Source of the DNA: Azoarcus sp.
Lineage (GTDB): Bacteria > Pseudomonadota > Gammaproteobacteria > Burkholderiales > Rhodocyclaceae
DNA length: 64,000 nt
Direction: 5' to 3'
Assembly: GCA_031277415.1 (NCBI GenBank)
Contig: JAITMK010000132.1
Coordinates: 3,977-67,976, forward strand
Part shown: in pieces, positions 6,935-52,675 of the stretch
Numbering within the stretch: the first letter of the stretch is position 1
How the letters are laid out: every line of letters starts with the position of its first letter
Position numbers and translations under genes: made by a program
The notes under the pieces: generated by a model
Databases searched by the model: none
What the model saw: the letters and a program-made list of their open reading frames with translations, nothing else
What the model was told of the DNA's origin: nothing

Positions 6935-9616
6935 TCACCCCTTCCCAAACCTCAACTCCCCTCCTTCAAACGTCACGCGAATCACATCCTTCGCCAGAAA
7001 CCGGCCTTCGAGTATGGCTTTGGCGAGGGGGTTTTCCAGTTTTTCCTGAATTGCGCGCTTCAGCGGGCGGGCGCCGAAAACCGGATCGAATCCCGCTTTG
7101 GCGAGTTCCGCCAATGCCGCATCATCGACTTCGAGCCGCATGTCGAGCCGCGTCAGACGCTGTTCCAGGTGTTGCAGTTGAATTTTGGCAATCCCGGCGA
7201 TATGCGCTTCGTCGAGGGCGTGGAAAACGACGATTTCGTCGATGCGGTTGATAAATTCGGGGCGGAAGGACGCCTTCACTTCATCCATGACCGCCCGTTT
7301 GATGAGGTCGTCACCCCCGCCCGCCCGCCGGGCCGCCCCAAGGGCGGGCGCGCCCCCTTGGGGAGCAGCGAATTCGGCAGAGCCGGATGAGCGTGGGGGC
7401 TCACCCCCCCCTGTCATCTGCTGAATCATCTGGCTGCCGAGGTTGGACGTCATGACGATCACCGTGTTCTTGAAGTCCACGGTGCGTCCCTGCCCGTCGG
7501 TCATGCGGCCATCGTCGAGGACTTGCAGCAGGACGTTGAACACGTCGGGATGCGCTTTTTCCACTTCGTCGAACAGAATCACGCTGTAGGGTTTGCGCCG
7601 CACCTGTTCGGTCAGGTAGCCGCCTTCTTCATAACCAACGTAACCCGGGGGCGCGCCAATGAGGCGGGCGACAGAGTGTTTCTCCATGAATTCGCTCATG
7701 TCGACGCGAATCAGATGCTCCCCGGAATCGAACAGAAAACTCGCCAGCGCCTTGCAAAGCTCCGTTTTGCCCACGCCGGTCGGCCCCAGGAACAGGAAAG
7801 AACCGTAGGGCCGGTTTTCGTCGGAAAGTCCGGCGCGCGAACGGCGGATGGCGTCCGAGACGAGCCGCACGGCTTCGTCCTGCCCGACGACACGCTCATG
7901 CAGACGCTCTTCCATCTTGAGCAGTTTTTCGCGCTCGCCCTGCATCATCCTGGAAACCGGAATGCCCGTGGCGCGGCTGACAACTTCGGCGATTTCTTCC
8001 GCGCCGACCTGGGTGCGCAGCAGCCGGTTCTGCTTTGATGCGCCGCCTTCATCACCATCCATTTTTTCGGCAGCTTTCAGTTGCGCTTCGAGCCTCGGCA
8101 ATTCGCCGTATTGCAGTTCAGCGAGTTTATCGAACTGACCTTTGCGCTGGAATTCGGCCATGCGCACCTTGAGATGGTCGATTTCCTCCTTGATGTGCCG
8201 GGCTCCGTGCAGTTGGGCTTTTTCGGCTTTCCAGACTTCTTCGAGATCGGAGTACTCCTTCTCCAGCCGGGCAATTTCCGCTTCGATCAGGGAAAGGCGC
8301 TTTTGCGAGGCTTCGTCCTTTTCTTTCTTGACCGCTTCGCGTTCGATTTTGAGCTGGATGAGGCGGCGGTCGAGTTTGTCCATGACTTCGGGCTTGGAGT
8401 CGATTTCCATCTTGATCCGCGCCGCCGCTTCGTCGATGAGGTCGATGGCCTTGTCGGGTAAAAAACGGTCGGTGATGTAACGGTTTGAGAGTTCGGAAGC
8501 CGCAACGATGGCCGGGTCGGTGATTTCCACCCCATGATGGATTTCGTATTTCTCCTGCAAACCGCGCAGGATGGCAATAGTCGCCTCGACCGTCGGCTCT
8601 TCGATCAGCACCTTCTGGAAACGGCGTTCCAGTGCCGCATCCTTTTCGATGTATTTGCGGTATTCGTCCAGCGTCGTCGCGCCGATGCAGTGCAAATCGC
8701 CCCGCGCTAGCGCCGGTTTGAGCATGTTGCCGGCGTCGATGGCCCCCTCGGCCTTGCCCGCGCCGACCATCGTATGCAATTCATCGATGAAGAGAATGAT
8801 GCGGCCTTCCTCGCGGGTGATTTCTTTCAGCACCGCTTTTAGACGCTCTTCAAATTCGCCCCGATACTTGGCCCCGGCGAGCAGCGCCGCCATGTCGAGC
8901 GCAAGCACCCGTTTTCCCTTGAGCGTTTCGGGAATCTCCTCGTTGACGATGCGCTGCGCAAGACCTTCGACGATGGCCGTCTTGCCAACGCCGGGTTCGC
9001 CGATCAGCACGGGATTGTTCTTGGAACGCCGCTGAAGAATCTGAATGGCGCGGCGGATTTCATCGTCACGCCCAATCACGGGATCGAGTTTGCCCATGCG
9101 CGCGCGCTCGGTGAGATCCATGCAATATTTCGATAGCGCCTCGCGCTGCCCTTCGCCTTCCTGGTTGTCGACCGCCGCCCCCCCGCGCACGGCATCGATG
9201 GCCGCTTCCAGCGCCTTGCGGTTCAGGCCATATTCGCGCAGCAAGCGCCCGGTTTCGCCTTTGTCCTCGACAAGCGCGAGCAGGAACATTTCACTGGCGA
9301 TGAACTGGTCGCCGCGTTTTTGCGCTTCGCGGTCGGTGAGATTGAGTAGCCCCCCAAGATCGCGCCCGACGGTCACGTTACCGCCGTGACCTTCGACTTT
9401 CGGCAGGTTTTCGAGCGCGCGGGCAAGCGCCGCTCTCAAGGGTTGCACGTTGACGCCCGCGCGCTGCAACAGCGATACCGTGCTGCCGTCTTCCTGTTCG
9501 AGCAGGGCCAGCAGCAAGTGCTGGGGTTCGATGAACTGCTGGTCGTTACCGACCGCCAGACTTTGCGCGTCGGCAAGCGCCTTCTGGAACCGGGTGGTGA
9601 GTTTGTCGAGTCGCAT
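6935..9616 (-). CDS. clpB: ClpB chaperone
   Basis: Start [11 protein letters not shown]; GEPGVGKT and GPTGVGKT Walker A motifs, middle coiled-coil, GARPLKR. Confidence 0.97.
7314..7411. repeat. GC-rich palindromic repeat-like element inserted in frame in clpB
   Basis: CCGCCGGGCCGCCCCAAGGGCGGGCGCGCCCCCTTGGGGAGCAGCGAA...GAGCGTGGGGG encodes a low-complexity ~30-aa insertion in NBD2. Confidence 0.55.
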
Positions 9617-9677
9617 GGTGAAAATCCTGTGTAAAAACCGGAAAACGTCTGCCAGACAAATTGGCCGAATGGCCTTT

Positions 9678-9706
9678 ATGTGGGGGAGGAAGCATTCGGC
9701 TTCAAG
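9678..9706 (-). promoter_or_regulatory. sigma32 (RpoH)-type promoter of clpB
   Basis: Minus strand CTTGAA-N14-CCCCCACAT, close to the sigma32 consensus. Confidence 0.7.
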
Positions 9707-9833
9707 AGGAAATCGCCTGCGTGACGAATTACCGTCACACATGCCCAACCTGTCTTTTGATGTGACATAGGTCGTTCCTCCCTTACCCCGGATCAAACAG
9801 AATCCCAAGCAACATCTTCGTAAATACAGGGCC

Positions 9834-10346
9834 ATGAACCAGATGCCCGATCCCCCTGTAACACGCACTCGACAGATCGGAGTCAGCCTGATCGAAGTGC
9901 TTGTTTCCGTTTTCGTGCTCGCCTTCGGCATCCTCGGCATTGCTGCCATGCAGGCCGGGGCATTGCGAAACAACCAGGGCGCGTTCGAGCAGAGCGCTGC
10001 CGTTTTTATCGCGCACTCCATTCTCGACGCCATGCGCGCCAGCATGGTGCACGACTCTGAGAACCCCGGCAGGCTGATCGTCCGCCAGGGCTATGCGACG
10101 GGTAATTTAATTTGCCAGGACAGCCAGATTTCCAGTACCGACACCCTCGTCGCAAACGATCTCAAACGCTGGCTCAAAAATATCCGCGACAACCTGAACG
10201 GCGGCGTGGCCGATGACAACGCCTGCGGCAAGATCGTATGCGACGTGGGCGACCCCAATCTCTGCACGGTATCGGTTCAGTGGAACAACAGCCGCTCCCT
10301 GGGCGGAAATGCGGCGCAGGTCGTGGAAACACGGAGCCGACTATGA
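9834..10346 (+). CDS. pilV: Type IV minor pilin PilV
   Basis: Class III signal G|[24 protein letters not shown]; C-terminal CTVSVQW. Confidence 0.9.
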
Positions 10347-25034: not shown

Positions 25035-25110
<76 letters not shown>

Positions 25111-25122
25111 GGAAAGAACCGC

Positions 25123-25198
25123 GTCCCCATCGTCTAGAGGCCTAGGACACCGCCCTTTCACGGCGATAACCGGGGTTCGAATCCCCGTGGGGACGCCA
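25123..25198 (+). tRNA. tRNA-Glu (TTC); probable prophage attL
   Basis: GTCCCCA/TGGGGAC acceptor, CTTTCAC loop, encoded CCA; C27-A43 mismatch. Confidence 0.95.
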
Positions 25199-26672
25199 CC
25201 TGTACCCCGCTTTTTTGCGGGCTGAAGCGGAAAGTAATTTCCGCCTCAAACGTTGTGGCGTCAAGCGTGATGCCCTCTACCATCTCGCGCAGCATGTCGG
25301 CTAAGCCCTCCGGGGCTGCGCCGCCCATGTCGCCAACAATCCCTTTGAGCATCCGTTTCACGTCCGACGCGCTTATCTCTCTTAGCACACGCGCGTTCGC
25401 GTTTTCACTCTCCATCCCTTCAAGCCTTACCTTGAGCGTTTCTCGCTCATCTTCACAGGCCTCGATCTGGCGAAGTAGCGCATCCGGCGCGCTGGTCTCT
25501 GAGAGCAAATCTACGAGGCGAGTAATTTTCTTGTCGATTTCCGCAATCCTGCGTTTAACGCTCGCGATTTCATCCGTGTTACTGCCTGCCGTTTTCGACA
25601 GCTTGCGGTAGTGCTCTGCAATGGATGAAGCCATTTCATCAGAGCGCATCTGCTCGATGACGCTCTCGACAATCACGCGCTCAATGGTGTCTGCTTGGAT
25701 TCTCGCGCCTTTTCCGATGCGGTACGTCCCGCCGTCTCCACTCCACGCGATACCCTCAGGAGAGACAAGCAGACCCGAAAGCAGATAGACGCGCTTCGCA
25801 GGTTTTCCGCCACTTCGTTTTTTCTGCTCGACCTGCGCCAGTATCGCTTCTGCCTCTTCGTCAGATATCAGCGCATCGTGTGTGTTCCTTTGGATGATCC
25901 ATTCTGCGCGTGGACGGTACTTCTGCCCTCCGACGTATCCATTGCCTGACTTTTCCGCTGTGCGGTTCCAGACAGTATGCCCAGCGTAGGTGAGCGCATT
26001 GCGCTCGATCTCTAGCAAGCTTGTGGTAGGTATGCCCGTACCTGCCAATTCCAAGGCGCGTGAGCGCTTAAATCCGCGCGCTCTGTGCATGAGGTAAGCG
26101 CGAACCTTGACGGCTTCCTCATTCGGCGCCAAGCGCGATTTCGTAACGCGCTGCCCGTCCCTTACTGCGCCGGTTTCTTCGTACTGTAGACGGTATCCTC
26201 GTGGCGCGCGACCGCCTGCCCGCCAGCCTTGTCGGATGTTTTCCGCCATACCTGATAGACCTTTCGCCTTGCTCGTCAGGCTGTGCCATTCGTCCATAGC
26301 TTGCAGGATGGACTTTAGCAGCATTTCCGTGATGGGGTCAGCGTCCGGCAGGCTCTTGTAAATAATCTTGATGCCGCGCCGGGCGCATTCGTGCTCCTCG
26401 AAGATGATGGCGAGTGCACGCCGCCGGGCAATACGTGCTGTATCCAGCACAAGGATATGATCCCATTTTCTGTCGGCTGATCGGATAGCGCGAAGCAGGG
26501 ATTGAAACCCTGGCCTATCGTCGTCCTTACCGCTCTCTACCGCATCAGCGAACTCAGCGACAATTACGATACCGCGCGCGGAAGCAAGTTCTGACAGCGC
26601 ACGCCTCTGCGCGTCTATGGAAACGTCAGAACGATCTTTTGAAGATCGGAGGTAGCTGGCCGCGCGGATCAT
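25158..26672 (-). CDS. Large serine recombinase (integrase)
   Basis: YLRSS catalytic Ser, DTARIAR, GWRAGGRAPRGY, WIIQRNTHDALIS, coiled coil; ends ASPRGFEPRLSP over the tRNA. Confidence 0.93.
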   Translation of the reverse strand: MIRAASYLRSSKDRSDVSIDAQRRALSELASARGIVIVAEFADAVESGKDDDRPGFQSLLRAIRSADRKWDHILVLDTARIARRRALAIIFEEHECARRGIKIIYKSLPDADPITEMLLKSILQAMDEWHSLTSKAKGLSGMAENIRQGWRAGGRAPRGYRLQYEETGAVRDGQRVTKSRLAPNEEAVKVRAYLMHRARGFKRSRALELAGTGIPTTSLLEIERNALTYAGHTVWNRTAEKSGNGYVGGQKYRPRAEWIIQRNTHDALISDEEAEAILAQVEQKKRSGGKPAKRVYLLSGLLVSPEGIAWSGDGGTYRIGKGARIQADTIERVIVESVIEQMRSDEMASSIAEHYRKLSKTAGSNTDEIASVKRRIAEIDKKITRLVDLLSETSAPDALLRQIEACEDERETLKVRLEGMESENANARVLREISASDVKRMLKGIVGDMGGAAPEGLADMLREMVEGITLDATTFEAEITFRFSPQKSGVQVASPRGFEPRLSP

Positions 26673-50961: not shown

Positions 50962-51162
50962 ATGAAAAATACAAACACCATCGCTATTACCATCGAATCC
51001 CTGAAGTCCATAAAGGGCGATGTAAATAAAAATGTCGCCACGTACTTGAAGCAGCGCGGCATCAATGTGCTTGACGCAGACGTGGTAGTCACATGCCCGT
51101 CAGAACCAGGTCGAATCTGGGTCAAGCGTCCAGGCAAGTCTTCTGTCGATGCCTACGGCTGA
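50962..51162 (+). CDS. Small hypothetical protein (anti-defence candidate)
   Basis: AAGGAG RBS; 66 aa; antisense to flanking operons. Confidence 0.7.
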   Translation: MKNTNTIAITIESLKSIKGDVNKNVATYLKQRGINVLDADVVVTCPSEPGRIWVKRPGKSSVDAYG

Positions 51163-51192
51163 TGCGCTTACGCGGGATATTAGGAGAACAAA

Positions 51193-51660
51193 ATGATTTC
51201 AACTAAAACAGTCGATTTGGGTAATGGTCGCATCATCACCGTGACAGCAACCTGCACCGTCTCTGATGACATTAGCTACTCGGACGGTTGGAACATCAAC
51301 CTGGGTCGTAAGATTTCCAGGAAAGTAGTGTGCTCGGTCGAAAAAGACGGAAAAAATATTTGCAGCGGCGATTTTTGCCAAGTCGTTACCCCGGACGAAA
51401 AGCAGAGATACCCGGCGGCAGTCGGAAGTATCGCGGACAGTATCTACCTGGGCGCTGAATCTTTTGAAAAAGTCAAGACAGCATACGATGCGGCTGTCGC
51501 GGAAGCAGAAGAACCGGAAGCTAAGGAACTCGACGCTAAGGAAAAAGCAAGGGTCGAAGCCCTTGACGAAATGTACACAAAGTACGAGCCAACGCAGCGT
51601 CCATACGGCTGGTGCGATAAATGTCAATCGTGCTGTTACGGCGATTGCGAGGCAGCGTAA
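51193..51660 (+). CDS. Hypothetical protein with C-terminal CxxCxxCCxxxC cluster
   Basis: AGGAG RBS; WCDKCQSCCYGDC. Confidence 0.75.
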   Translation: MISTKTVDLGNGRIITVTATCTVSDDISYSDGWNINLGRKISRKVVCSVEKDGKNICSGDFCQVVTPDEKQRYPAAVGSIADSIYLGAESFEKVKTAYDAAVAEAEEPEAKELDAKEKARVEALDEMYTKYEPTQRPYGWCDKCQSCCYGDCEAA

Positions 51661-51737
51661 ACAGCAGTCGACGGGATCGATCTCGCGCAAGAGGAGCAGC
51701 GTGTTGGCAAAAAGATCTATCTTGCTGATGCCGTATA

Positions 51738-51773
51738 GCCGAAACGACAAACGCCTCCTGAGAGGCGTTTGTC
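51738..51773 (-). terminator. Hairpin terminating the repeat-containing RNA
   Basis: GACAAACGCCTC-N4-GAGGCGTTTGTC then GTTTC on minus strand. Confidence 0.65.
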
Positions 51774-51905
51774 TGAGAAGCCCTTTTCAAATATCGTTTC
51801 AATCCACGCGTCCCGTGAAGGACGCGACAACTACAAAGCGTAAAGGACAATCCCTTTACAAAGACTGTTTCAATTCAACGCCGGTCTAAACCGGCGACAT
51901 GCTGC
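51740..51905 (-). ncRNA. Candidate CRISPR-like RNA (tandem Racr/crlRNA), about 165 nt
   Basis: Promoter, repeat, pseudo-spacer, repeat, pseudo-spacer, terminator in one orientation. Confidence 0.6.
51796..51898 (-). CRISPR. Two divergent type I-C-like repeats separated by 38 nt (not a canonical array)
   Basis: GTCGCCGGTTTAGACCGGCGTTGAATTGAAAC (51867-51898) and GTCGCGTCCTTCACGGGACGCGTGGATTGAAAC (51796-51828); both with 7-bp stem and ATTGAAAC end; no cas genes in window. Confidence 0.8.
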
Positions 51906-51911
51906 GAGAGC

Positions 51912-51941
51912 AGAATATCACAGGAGCTATGATGTCATCAA
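51912..51941 (-). promoter_or_regulatory. Putative sigma70 promoter of the repeat RNA
   Basis: TTGATG-N18-TATTCT with TGn extension; predicted +1 about 51905, 7 nt before first repeat. Confidence 0.55.
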
Positions 51942-52192
51942 GGAATAAATCCATTTCACAGCGGATTCGCACGGCGGGATCTGCTGAACTACGATCTGAA
52001 ATCTACAATGAATGGGCTAAACACTGGGCAAGCAACCAGATGGCCATCATAGCGCGCATGGATCGTGCGCGCGAAAATAAGGACTGGGATCAAATAGCCG
52101 GAAACTTGGCGCAGCTTCATGCGCTTTCTGTGAAGATGTTTTCGGCGCTGCCAAATGTATTGTCTTTGCTCAATGACAATGGTGATTTATGA
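51929..52192 (+). CDS. Small helical hypothetical protein
   Basis: AGGAG RBS before ATG 51929; 87 aa. Confidence 0.7.
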   Translation: MMSSRNKSISQRIRTAGSAELRSEIYNEWAKHWASNQMAIIARMDRARENKDWDQIAGNLAQLHALSVKMFSALPNVLSLLNDNGDL

Positions 52193-52437
52193 CAAACCAC
52201 CCGAATCGTAACTGGCGACGCTGTTGGAAAGTTGATCTTTCCGCAGCAACGGCAACACACTCTGACGGATGGGTTTTCCACTTCGAGCGCGACGAAGAAG
52301 ACGGAGCCTGGGACGGCAGCGTGATCGACTGCCCGCCGCTTGAAGCTGAAACGTCCCCGGAATTCGCGCAACGAGCACTTCGCATCGCGCGCGAAGCAGG
52401 GGAAATCTACACCGAAGCCCTGGCGGAGAGACACTGA
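52189..52437 (+). CDS. Small hypothetical protein (MTNHPNR start)
   Basis: ATGA coupling to upstream gene; 82 aa. Confidence 0.7.
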   Translation: MTNHPNRNWRRCWKVDLSAATATHSDGWVFHFERDEEDGAWDGSVIDCPPLEAETSPEFAQRALRIAREAGEIYTEALAERH

Positions 52438-52438
52438 C

Positions 52439-52675
52439 ATGGCGCGGCCTCGTATTTATGCAAAAGGCACCACGGCAACGCAGCGCGTAGCCGCTTCAAC
52501 GGCGGCACTTGTCGCTGCCGGTGGTGCGCGTAAGACTTTCCGTTTATCACCGGATGCGATGGCCGCGCTACGCACACTGATGAGTTCGCCGGAGGCGCCT
52601 GACACAGAGACAGCTTTGATCGAGCGACTTTTGCTTGATGCTTCTATTACACAAGGGCGGCCTGAACGCTTTTGA
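52439..52675 (+). CDS. Small putative DNA-binding (ribbon-helix-helix-like) protein
   Basis: RKTFRLSPDAMAALRTL...TALIERLL pattern; GGAG RBS. Confidence 0.6.
   Translation: MARPRIYAKGTTATQRVAASTAALVAAGGARKTFRLSPDAMAALRTLMSSPEAPDTETALIERLLLDASITQGRPERF

Follow-up and report, generated by a model that had tools for sequence, protein, structure and literature searches.

A prophage element with two type I-C CRISPR-repeat-like units: a possible two-guide RNA array against type I-C CRISPR-Cas

Counter-defence by phage-encoded RNA has already been described (2023-2026). Solitary repeat units carried by phages inhibit type I-C, I-E, I-F and V-A systems, and one of these RNA anti-CRISPRs (Racrs), RacrIC1, has been validated for type I-C (PMC10651486). 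A Racr mimics the repeat of a CRISPR type found in its host or community, gives rise to aberrant Cas subcomplexes, inhibits without serving as a guide and often lies near acr genes. A second form, the Cracr, is carried by a virus or plasmid away from any CRISPR-cas locus. It is defined by a psi-spacer that shares at least 9 nt proximal to the protospacer-adjacent motif (PAM) with the psi-spacer of a host CreR/CreA and that is partly complementary to a PAM-flanked site in a cas or creT promoter; Cracrs mature in dependence on Cas, repress cas/creT transcription and rescue a targeted phage. Thirty Cracr arrays have been reported, nine of them two-spacer arrays of type I-C, the validated psi-spacers are 21 and 24 nt long, and the arrays often cover variants of one subtype (10.1101/2024.10.29.618823). 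For type I-F1, too, a mini-array whose two spacers are largely identical is known from a prophage (Shmakov et al., PMC10120712). Here we analyze a mini-array element read on the minus strand (51941-51738) of a prophage, within a 64,000-nt stretch of contig JAITMK010000132.1 assigned to Azoarcus sp., which we call the window. A model that saw the sequence alone had singled it out as two tandem type I-C repeat-like units forming a candidate Racr or regulatory CRISPR-like RNA (crlRNA); we refer to this as the original prediction. We consider it probable that the element encodes an RNA with which the phage engages type I-C Cas proteins to its own benefit. The more specific reading that we favour, a promoter-directed crlRNA array of two guides acting against type I-C CRISPR-Cas (a 'Cracr array'), we hold in about equal measures of confidence and doubt. 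The element would thus be a new example of RNA counter-defence rather than a new principle.

Type I-C repeats are 32-33 nt long, begin with 5' GTCGC, form a GC-rich stem of 7 bp and end 3' in G(G/A)ATTGAAAC, which gives rise to an 11-nt 5' handle. Cleavage by Cas5c falls at the base of the repeat hairpin, on its 3' side, the resulting 11-nt 5' handle ends in AUUGAAAC, and the PAM is 5'-TTC. Arrays of such repeats adjoin cas3-cas5-cas8c-cas7-cas4-cas1-cas2. The second unit of the element, repeat B (psi-R2; 51796-51828, minus strand; 33 nt, GTCGCGTCCTTCACGGGACGCGTGGATTGAAAC), is a canonical repeat of this type. A scan of species-representative genomes with a degenerate A/B repeat pattern yielded at least 119 I-C loci, and all 33 nt of B are identical to the repeat of long I-C arrays on six contigs (L051, L058, L063, L089, L099 and L145), one of which (L063) carries 37 copies. 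Among the matches listed, the genomes with B-identical array repeats are several Pirellulaceae and one Alteromonadaceae. The L089 array adjoins open reading frames (ORFs) with the size and order expected for cas2, cas1, cas4, cas7, cas8c and cas5; database names identify the cas7 product as 'type I-C Cas7/Csd2', the only cas ORF confirmed there. The complete identity of B to array repeats, together with the position of the L089 array next to I-C cas genes, identifies B, at the level of sequence, as a bona fide I-C repeat.

The first unit, repeat A (psi-R1; 51867-51898, minus strand; 32 nt, GTCGCCGGTTTAGACCGGCGTTGAATTGAAAC), is built of GT, a stem strand CGCCGGT, a loop TTAG, the returning strand ACCGGCG and a 12-nt tail, TTGAATTGAAAC. 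Its stem sequence is different from that of B and fully compensated, and the RNA fold gives it 7 bp; the unit also keeps GTCGC and the AUUGAAAC end. A therefore has the shape of an I-C repeat, but with a tail of 12 nt. No match to A was found in IMG/VR, among the 119 genome loci listed or in the termite-gut runs, and in IMG/VR the exact repeats A and B and the A-type tail each returned 0 matches. Rfam gave only sub-threshold matches to CRISPR-DR families, CRISPR-DR9 in the case of B. The description of the two units as I-C-like, with stems that differ and GTCGC, a 7-bp stem and the AUUGAAAC end in common, is thus borne out by direct reading and by the fold, B being an exact I-C repeat and A keeping the I-C shape.

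The other parts of the element are likewise found where the original prediction had placed them: a promoter-like site, a 38-nt segment between the repeats, a 22-nt segment behind them and a terminal hairpin. The putative sigma-70-type promoter (51912-51941, minus strand) has a -35 box TTGATG (51941-51936), an 18-nt spacer and an extended -10 box, TGa-TATTCT (51920-51912), and agrees with the consensus at 8/12 positions plus TGn. This -35/-10 pair overlaps the ribosome-binding site AGGAG (51922-51926) and the ATG (51929/51932) of a divergent plus-strand gene of 86 aa. The '7-nt leader' between promoter and A rests on a presumed transcription start. In the 38-nt interval (51829-51866, minus strand), the first 22 nt, AGTCTTTGTAAAGGGATTGTCC, are what we call psi-spacer 1; nt 8-27 of the same interval form a hairpin, GTAAAGG-GATTGT-CCTTTAC, which is followed by a terminator-like GCTTTGTAGTT. 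Repeat B is followed by a 22-nt trailer read directly from the sequence, psi-spacer 2 (51774-51795, minus strand; GATATTTGAAAAGGGCTTCTCA), and this by a GC-rich hairpin of 12 bp, GACAAACGCCTC-TCAG-GAGGCGTTTGTC (51746-51773, minus strand, RNA fold), and GTTTCGG (51745-51739). Folding of the 169-nt RNA predicts four hairpins, of 7 bp in A, GUAAAGG/CCUUUAC in the 38-mer as originally claimed for the first trailer, of 8 bp in B, and the terminal one of 12 bp. The RNA folds with a z-score of -4.15 relative to dinucleotide shuffles, and 0/200 shuffles fold as well.

The two psi-spacers are related to each other. In fixed register, 15/22 positions are identical (68%; shuffle p = 7.5e-5), whereas none of the 1474 non-duplicate pairs of adjacent spacers in genuine I-C arrays reaches 15 matches, the maximum being 14. 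The count of 15 given in the original prediction is therefore correct and non-random. The likeness ends abruptly: only 2/16 positions agree past nt 22, where the terminal hairpin begins. Within the 22 nt, the two psi-spacers differ at seed positions 1, 2 and 4, and also at position 9, but agree at most later positions. Both psi-spacers contain TTGnAA, which would suit a -35 box, although this is only a hint. The repeats, on the other hand, agree at just 13/33 positions in an ungapped comparison, and 4/7 stem pairs have been exchanged. In a comparison across 38 small I-C arrays from IMG/VR, the element of the window ranks first in the similarity of its trailers and last in that of its repeats. 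The trailers are thus better preserved than the stems of the repeats and seem to be kept for a sequence-specific function, which favours a guide over a pure decoy. The seed differences, the later agreement and the stop at nt 22, in keeping with the psi-spacer length of validated viral crlRNAs, would likewise suit a pair of guide alleles better than the passive tails of a decoy.

We propose that transcription of the minus strand would start at the weak extended -10 promoter or arrive as read-through out of the early operon, and that host Cas5c would recognise the two I-C-like hairpins and cut at their 3' bases. Guide 1 would then consist of the handle from A, psi-spacer 1 and the B hairpin, and guide 2 of the 11-nt handle from B (UGGAUUGAAAC), the 22-nt psi-spacer 2 and the terminal hairpin in place of a third repeat; this hairpin could serve as terminator, as stand-in for the 3' hairpin of the missing repeat, or as both. 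Assembly of Cas5c, Cas7 and Cas8c on the guides would draw Cas proteins away from immune CRISPR RNAs (crRNAs). In addition, the two related psi-spacers of about 22 nt may guide the complexes to a TTC-flanked site that exists in two variants, most likely in the -35 region of a cas promoter, where partial pairing would allow binding and repression without cleavage by Cas3. The seed differences at positions 1, 2 and 4 fit two variant targets, as reported for Cracr arrays. Also in favour of the proposal are the position in an accessory island of a prophage, the repeat-B arrays of the termite-gut samples, a host-type unit of like build (L142) and other two-unit I-C-like arrays with unequal repeats in IMG/VR (L174, L206, L230, L236 and L242), all described below.

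Several observations weigh against this proposal. The predicted promoter sequence, TTGATG-N18-TGnTATTCT, is present as claimed; it is weak, it went unreported in a promoter scan, and as a promoter it stands at the level of the consensus only. The same applies to the terminator: the 12-bp stem exists, but no U-tract follows it, and a terminator scan passed it over and picked out the small hairpin within the 38-mer instead, so that here too the assignment is at the consensus level. Self-folding of nt 8-27 could hinder psi-spacer 1 as a guide, and with a tail of 12 rather than 11 nt, the Cas5c cut site and the handle of unit A may be off. The search for TTC-flanked targets of the trailers that the original prediction had called for found none beyond chance, either in the window or in the 119 I-C genome loci listed, which belong to unrelated taxa. 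A pattern combining ATTGAAAC with the conserved trailer positions had 0 matches in IMG/VR and only chance matches in JGI metagenomes, so that neither search pointed to a CreR-like partner or to another element with these psi-spacers. Known from a single metagenome, the element lacks comparative support, none of the RNA runs contained the locus, and the neighbouring island genes include no recognisable acr or aca genes in Pfam, PHROG, PDB and homologue searches. Finally, when contigs of the source metagenome were compared with L089, only short conserved motifs aligned, and the I-C locus of the host or community was not recovered. Two sets of candidate matches were set aside. The 29 JGI matches to the handle-plus-trailer pattern, one of them inside a Lon protease gene, are attributable to chance because they have no upstream repeat (by triage patterns, with two read by eye). 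The best match in the target scans of the window and the 119 loci, 16/22 upstream of cas3 in Hahella (L141), is mismatched in the seed, lacks TTC and is of a quality of which about 5 are expected by chance.

With no target and no CreR partner in hand, a pure Racr-type decoy stays a serious, if rather unlikely, rival. Here Cas5c would bind and process the hairpins and Cas7 would coat the trailers, tying up I-C subunits in aberrant, non-targeting subcomplexes; the trailers would not act as guides and would be alike simply through duplication. The precedents among solitary phage repeat units speak for it, as do the Cas5c-type hairpin and handle kept by both units, the failure to find a target for either trailer in the window, the 119 I-C loci listed, IMG/VR or JGI, and the resemblance of the short 22-nt trailer plus hairpin to a solitary unit with its own terminator. 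The element does mimic repeats in the way that Racrs do (B exactly, with arrays of it in the same metagenomes), but it comprises two tandem units and is not solitary. A drifting duplicate should moreover keep its repeat in preference to its trailer, and the reverse is seen, with 4/7 stem pairs exchanged against 15/22 trailer positions kept; nor would it explain why the trailer likeness stops sharply at nt 22, or why the seed differs and the rest is conserved, as in two guide alleles. The choice offered by the original prediction between a Racr and a CreR-like crlRNA was of the right class by comparison with the literature, and the better conservation of trailers than of stems shifts the weight from its 'repeat-trailer decoy' to a guide. 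The two mechanisms are not mutually exclusive, since Cracrs also compete for Cas proteins. If guides they are, they might be aimed elsewhere: it is conceivable, but improbable in our judgement, that they serve phage-controlled CRISPR interference (CRISPRi) through the host I-C Cascade at some other conserved promoter, for instance of a host or rival-phage gene present in two variants.

Spacer acquisition duplicates the repeat and inserts unrelated DNA. The element, by comparison, has unlike repeats, an interval of a length (at least 38 nt) reached by only 0.8% of 1499 genuine I-C spacers, and a flank that matches the would-be spacer at 15/22 positions. An ordinary array of acquired spacers is unlikely for these reasons, and the argument of the original prediction that independently acquired spacers would not look like this holds up on all three counts: non-identical repeats, a 38-nt spacer and homologous trailers. 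We accordingly give the lowest probability to a genuine phage mini-CRISPR array in which the 38-mer is an acquired spacer used with the host I-C machinery against a rival phage or plasmid (superinfection exclusion). Two repeats around one spacer-sized insert do suggest such an array, there are precedents for mini-arrays with real spacers in phages and prophages, and type I-C and small arrays occur in IMG/VR contigs; set against this are the 13/33 agreement of the repeats and their different stems, which acquisition does not produce, an interval in the extreme tail of spacer lengths, and homology between the spacer and the sequence past the last repeat. A protospacer for the 38-mer in another phage, which the original prediction would have taken as the sign of a true mini-array, did not appear either: both of its 20-mers are absent from IMG/VR, BLAST of the 204-nt locus and the surrounding 1.7 kb against GenBank phages gave only chance matches, and among plasmids the 204-nt locus had no BLAST match in the spacer region, in searches that tolerate few mismatches. 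Scarcely more probable is a decaying, functionless remnant of a CRISPR or CreR sequence acquired by the phage. This would account for the single occurrence of the element, its weak promoter and terminator, the lack of a target in the searches made and the lack of recognisable acr neighbours; it would not account for two perfect hairpins with fully compensated stems, that of B in an unmutated I-C repeat, for a fold far better than that of shuffles (z = -4.15), for conserved trailers, or for a compact promoter-unit-unit-hairpin layout that fills a gene-free gap.

Which I-C system would the favoured two-guide array meet? The ClpB protein encoded in the window is 91% identical to proteins of metagenome-assembled genomes (MAGs) of Zoogloeaceae and 82-83% identical to those of Thauera and Pseudothauera nasutitermitis, and on these identities the host of the prophage is, as judged from sequence, an uncultured bacterium of the Rhodocyclales (Zoogloeaceae), and not the Neisseria-like one that a PilC match had suggested. 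The longest ORF for ClpB (6935-10045, minus strand; 1036 aa) overshoots the gene, with the family model starting at about residue 149 and a database copy of 893 aa. The sole other public copy of the locus is Logan contig L001, from a termite-gut metagenome; the source sample is SRR14710899, which has sister runs. Arrays of repeat B, or of repeats close to it, are present on contigs of this termite-gut sample and of a sister one: a 96-nt contig holds two repeat copies, one of them identical to B at 33/33 positions, and in run X2 a 33-nt repeat contig reaches a depth of 3433. These arrays indicate that a cognate I-C system is present in the same microbial community, to judge by its repeats, and not necessarily in the host of the prophage. 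The source metagenome also contains a 3613-nt contig (depth 13.6) with a Cas7 motif, and a Cas7 search returned no protein assignable to it. A 459-nt contig of run X1 (depth 49.7) has one B-like repeat (3 mismatches) that is not joined by another copy within 70 or 255 nt, and may be another solitary unit.

The element lies among phage genes, as predicted. They include a serine recombinase, tail and head genes, TerS/TerL, RusA, a DUF1376 replication protein, an S24 repressor and RecT. At one end of the prophage, the large serine recombinase stands next to tRNA-Ala and tRNA-Glu, and tail, head and terminase genes follow up to RusA. The recombinase (504 aa; 25158-26672, minus strand) overlaps the 3' part of tRNA-Glu(ttc) (25123-25198), itself preceded by tRNA-Ala(ggc) (25035-25110), and this 3' part is for that reason the likely integration site as read from the sequence. 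Between RusA and the small terminase gene, an island of five small orphan genes (50962-52675; 66 and 155 aa, then the array, then 86, 82 and 78 aa; gene calls from the identical contig L001) runs on the plus strand, opposite to the minus-strand phage genes. By the same gene calls, the array fills a gene-free gap of 272 nt after the second island gene and is antisense to the island. If the five genes form one operon, their mRNA is antisense to the whole array and each transcript could interfere with the other. Mutual regulation of crlRNA and island mRNA may add a further layer to the improbable CRISPRi reading. The island proteins have no matches in Pfam, PHROG or PDB, and no homologue of the 86-aa protein was found among 5.8e9 proteins. 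The 155-aa protein encoded beside the array (51193-51660, plus strand) has a Cys-rich C-terminus, CDKCQSCCYGDCE; its only relatives, 29% identical, are on two IMG/VR contigs with no array nearby. No cas genes were found in the 64-kb window among the roughly 30 larger ORFs scanned, and the original statement that there are none holds for these ORFs, a part of the total.

If the favoured reading of the element as a two-guide array is right, it would be a type I-C RNA anti-CRISPR from an unsampled lineage, a Zoogloeaceae prophage of the termite gut. Its notable features are guides that are 68% identical and yet differ in the seed, repeat stems that were replaced in full although the guides were retained, and a plain hairpin in place of the last repeat. 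From the homologous psi-spacers one would expect two allelic sites in the I-C loci of the phage's hosts, each with TTC followed by at least 9/10 matches at the non-flipped positions 1-11 of AGTCTTTGTAA or GATATTTGAAA. The compact format of handle, 22 nt and hairpin could serve the design of small I-C guides; should the guides act in CRISPRi instead, the element, with a 12-bp terminator-type hairpin as substitute for the 3' repeat, would represent a minimal format of I-C guide.

Other loci carry comparable units. In a Pirellulaceae MAG (L142, 2900-3520), the interval from cas3 to cas5d contains, on the opposite strand, a solitary I-C repeat followed by 40 nt and an intrinsic terminator. A TTC-flanked site located 144 nt upstream of cas5d agrees with its first 11 nt at 9/10 non-flipped positions, and it is likely a CreR-type autoregulator of the host made from a single repeat. 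The second unit of the window, with one repeat, a trailer and a terminal hairpin, resembles it. A Vulcanimicrobiota MAG (L070, 4710-4800) has a solitary I-C repeat, 21 nt and a terminator hairpin, again laid out as in that second unit. In a Clostridiales MAG (L055, 4364-4470), a solitary I-C repeat unit directly follows a DUF927/Toprim primase gene, a position that points to a mobile element. Two-unit I-C-like arrays with unlike stems occur on seven IMG/VR viral contigs (L174, L206, L230, L236, L242, L175 and L245); several have intervals of 26-30 nt, those on L174 and L206 are followed by terminator-like hairpins, and the trailers of all seven are unrelated to those of the window. We regard these arrays of unequal repeats as candidate I-C crlRNA/Cracr arrays.

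Compared with the described systems, the window element shares with Racrs (Camara-Wilpert et al. 2023, PMC10651486) its nature as a phage repeat mimic with a putative promoter of its own and a terminal hairpin, and with RacrIC1 of a Bifidobacterium prophage the subtype I-C and the expectation of binding and cleavage by the repeat-processing nuclease. Racrs, however, are solitary and their downstream RNA is no guide, whereas here two tandem units carry mutually homologous trailers; and RacrIC1 follows acrIC5 at a distance of 11 nt, whereas the window element has no known acr beside it. Host CreR/CreA (10.1101/2023.03.10.532045) likewise have a degenerate repeat, a 3' structure and a psi-spacer, in their case a partially matching one. 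They reside within the CRISPR-cas locus beside the promoter that they repress, unlike the window element, which is in a prophage, with no cas gene found among the ORFs scanned in the 64 kb. The I-F1 mini-arrays (PMC10120712) are also prophage-borne, have two related spacers and sit in accessory or anti-defence islands, and their repeats too are conserved mainly beside the spacer and poorly in the stems; they differ in having targets upstream of cas8 and host counterparts, the window element being of type I-C, with two repeats plus a hairpin and no target found.

The closest parallel is with the Cracr arrays. The window element departs from them in that its psi-spacers had no CreR/CreA match or cas/creT promoter target in the searches made, in the outright replacement of the third repeat by a 12-bp hairpin, in a first interval of 38 nt with an internal hairpin, in psi-spacers that are 68% identical, and in the lack of a known co-encoded Acr. 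Like them, it is virus-encoded and lies outside a CRISPR-cas locus, in a phage or prophage, and its repeat-like units keep the part that gives the 5' handle. It also has, in one putative transcription unit, two different short psi-spacers, non-identical psi-repeats and an aberrant 3' end of the last unit, and the logic that we infer for it is the same as theirs, one array for two variants of one subtype.

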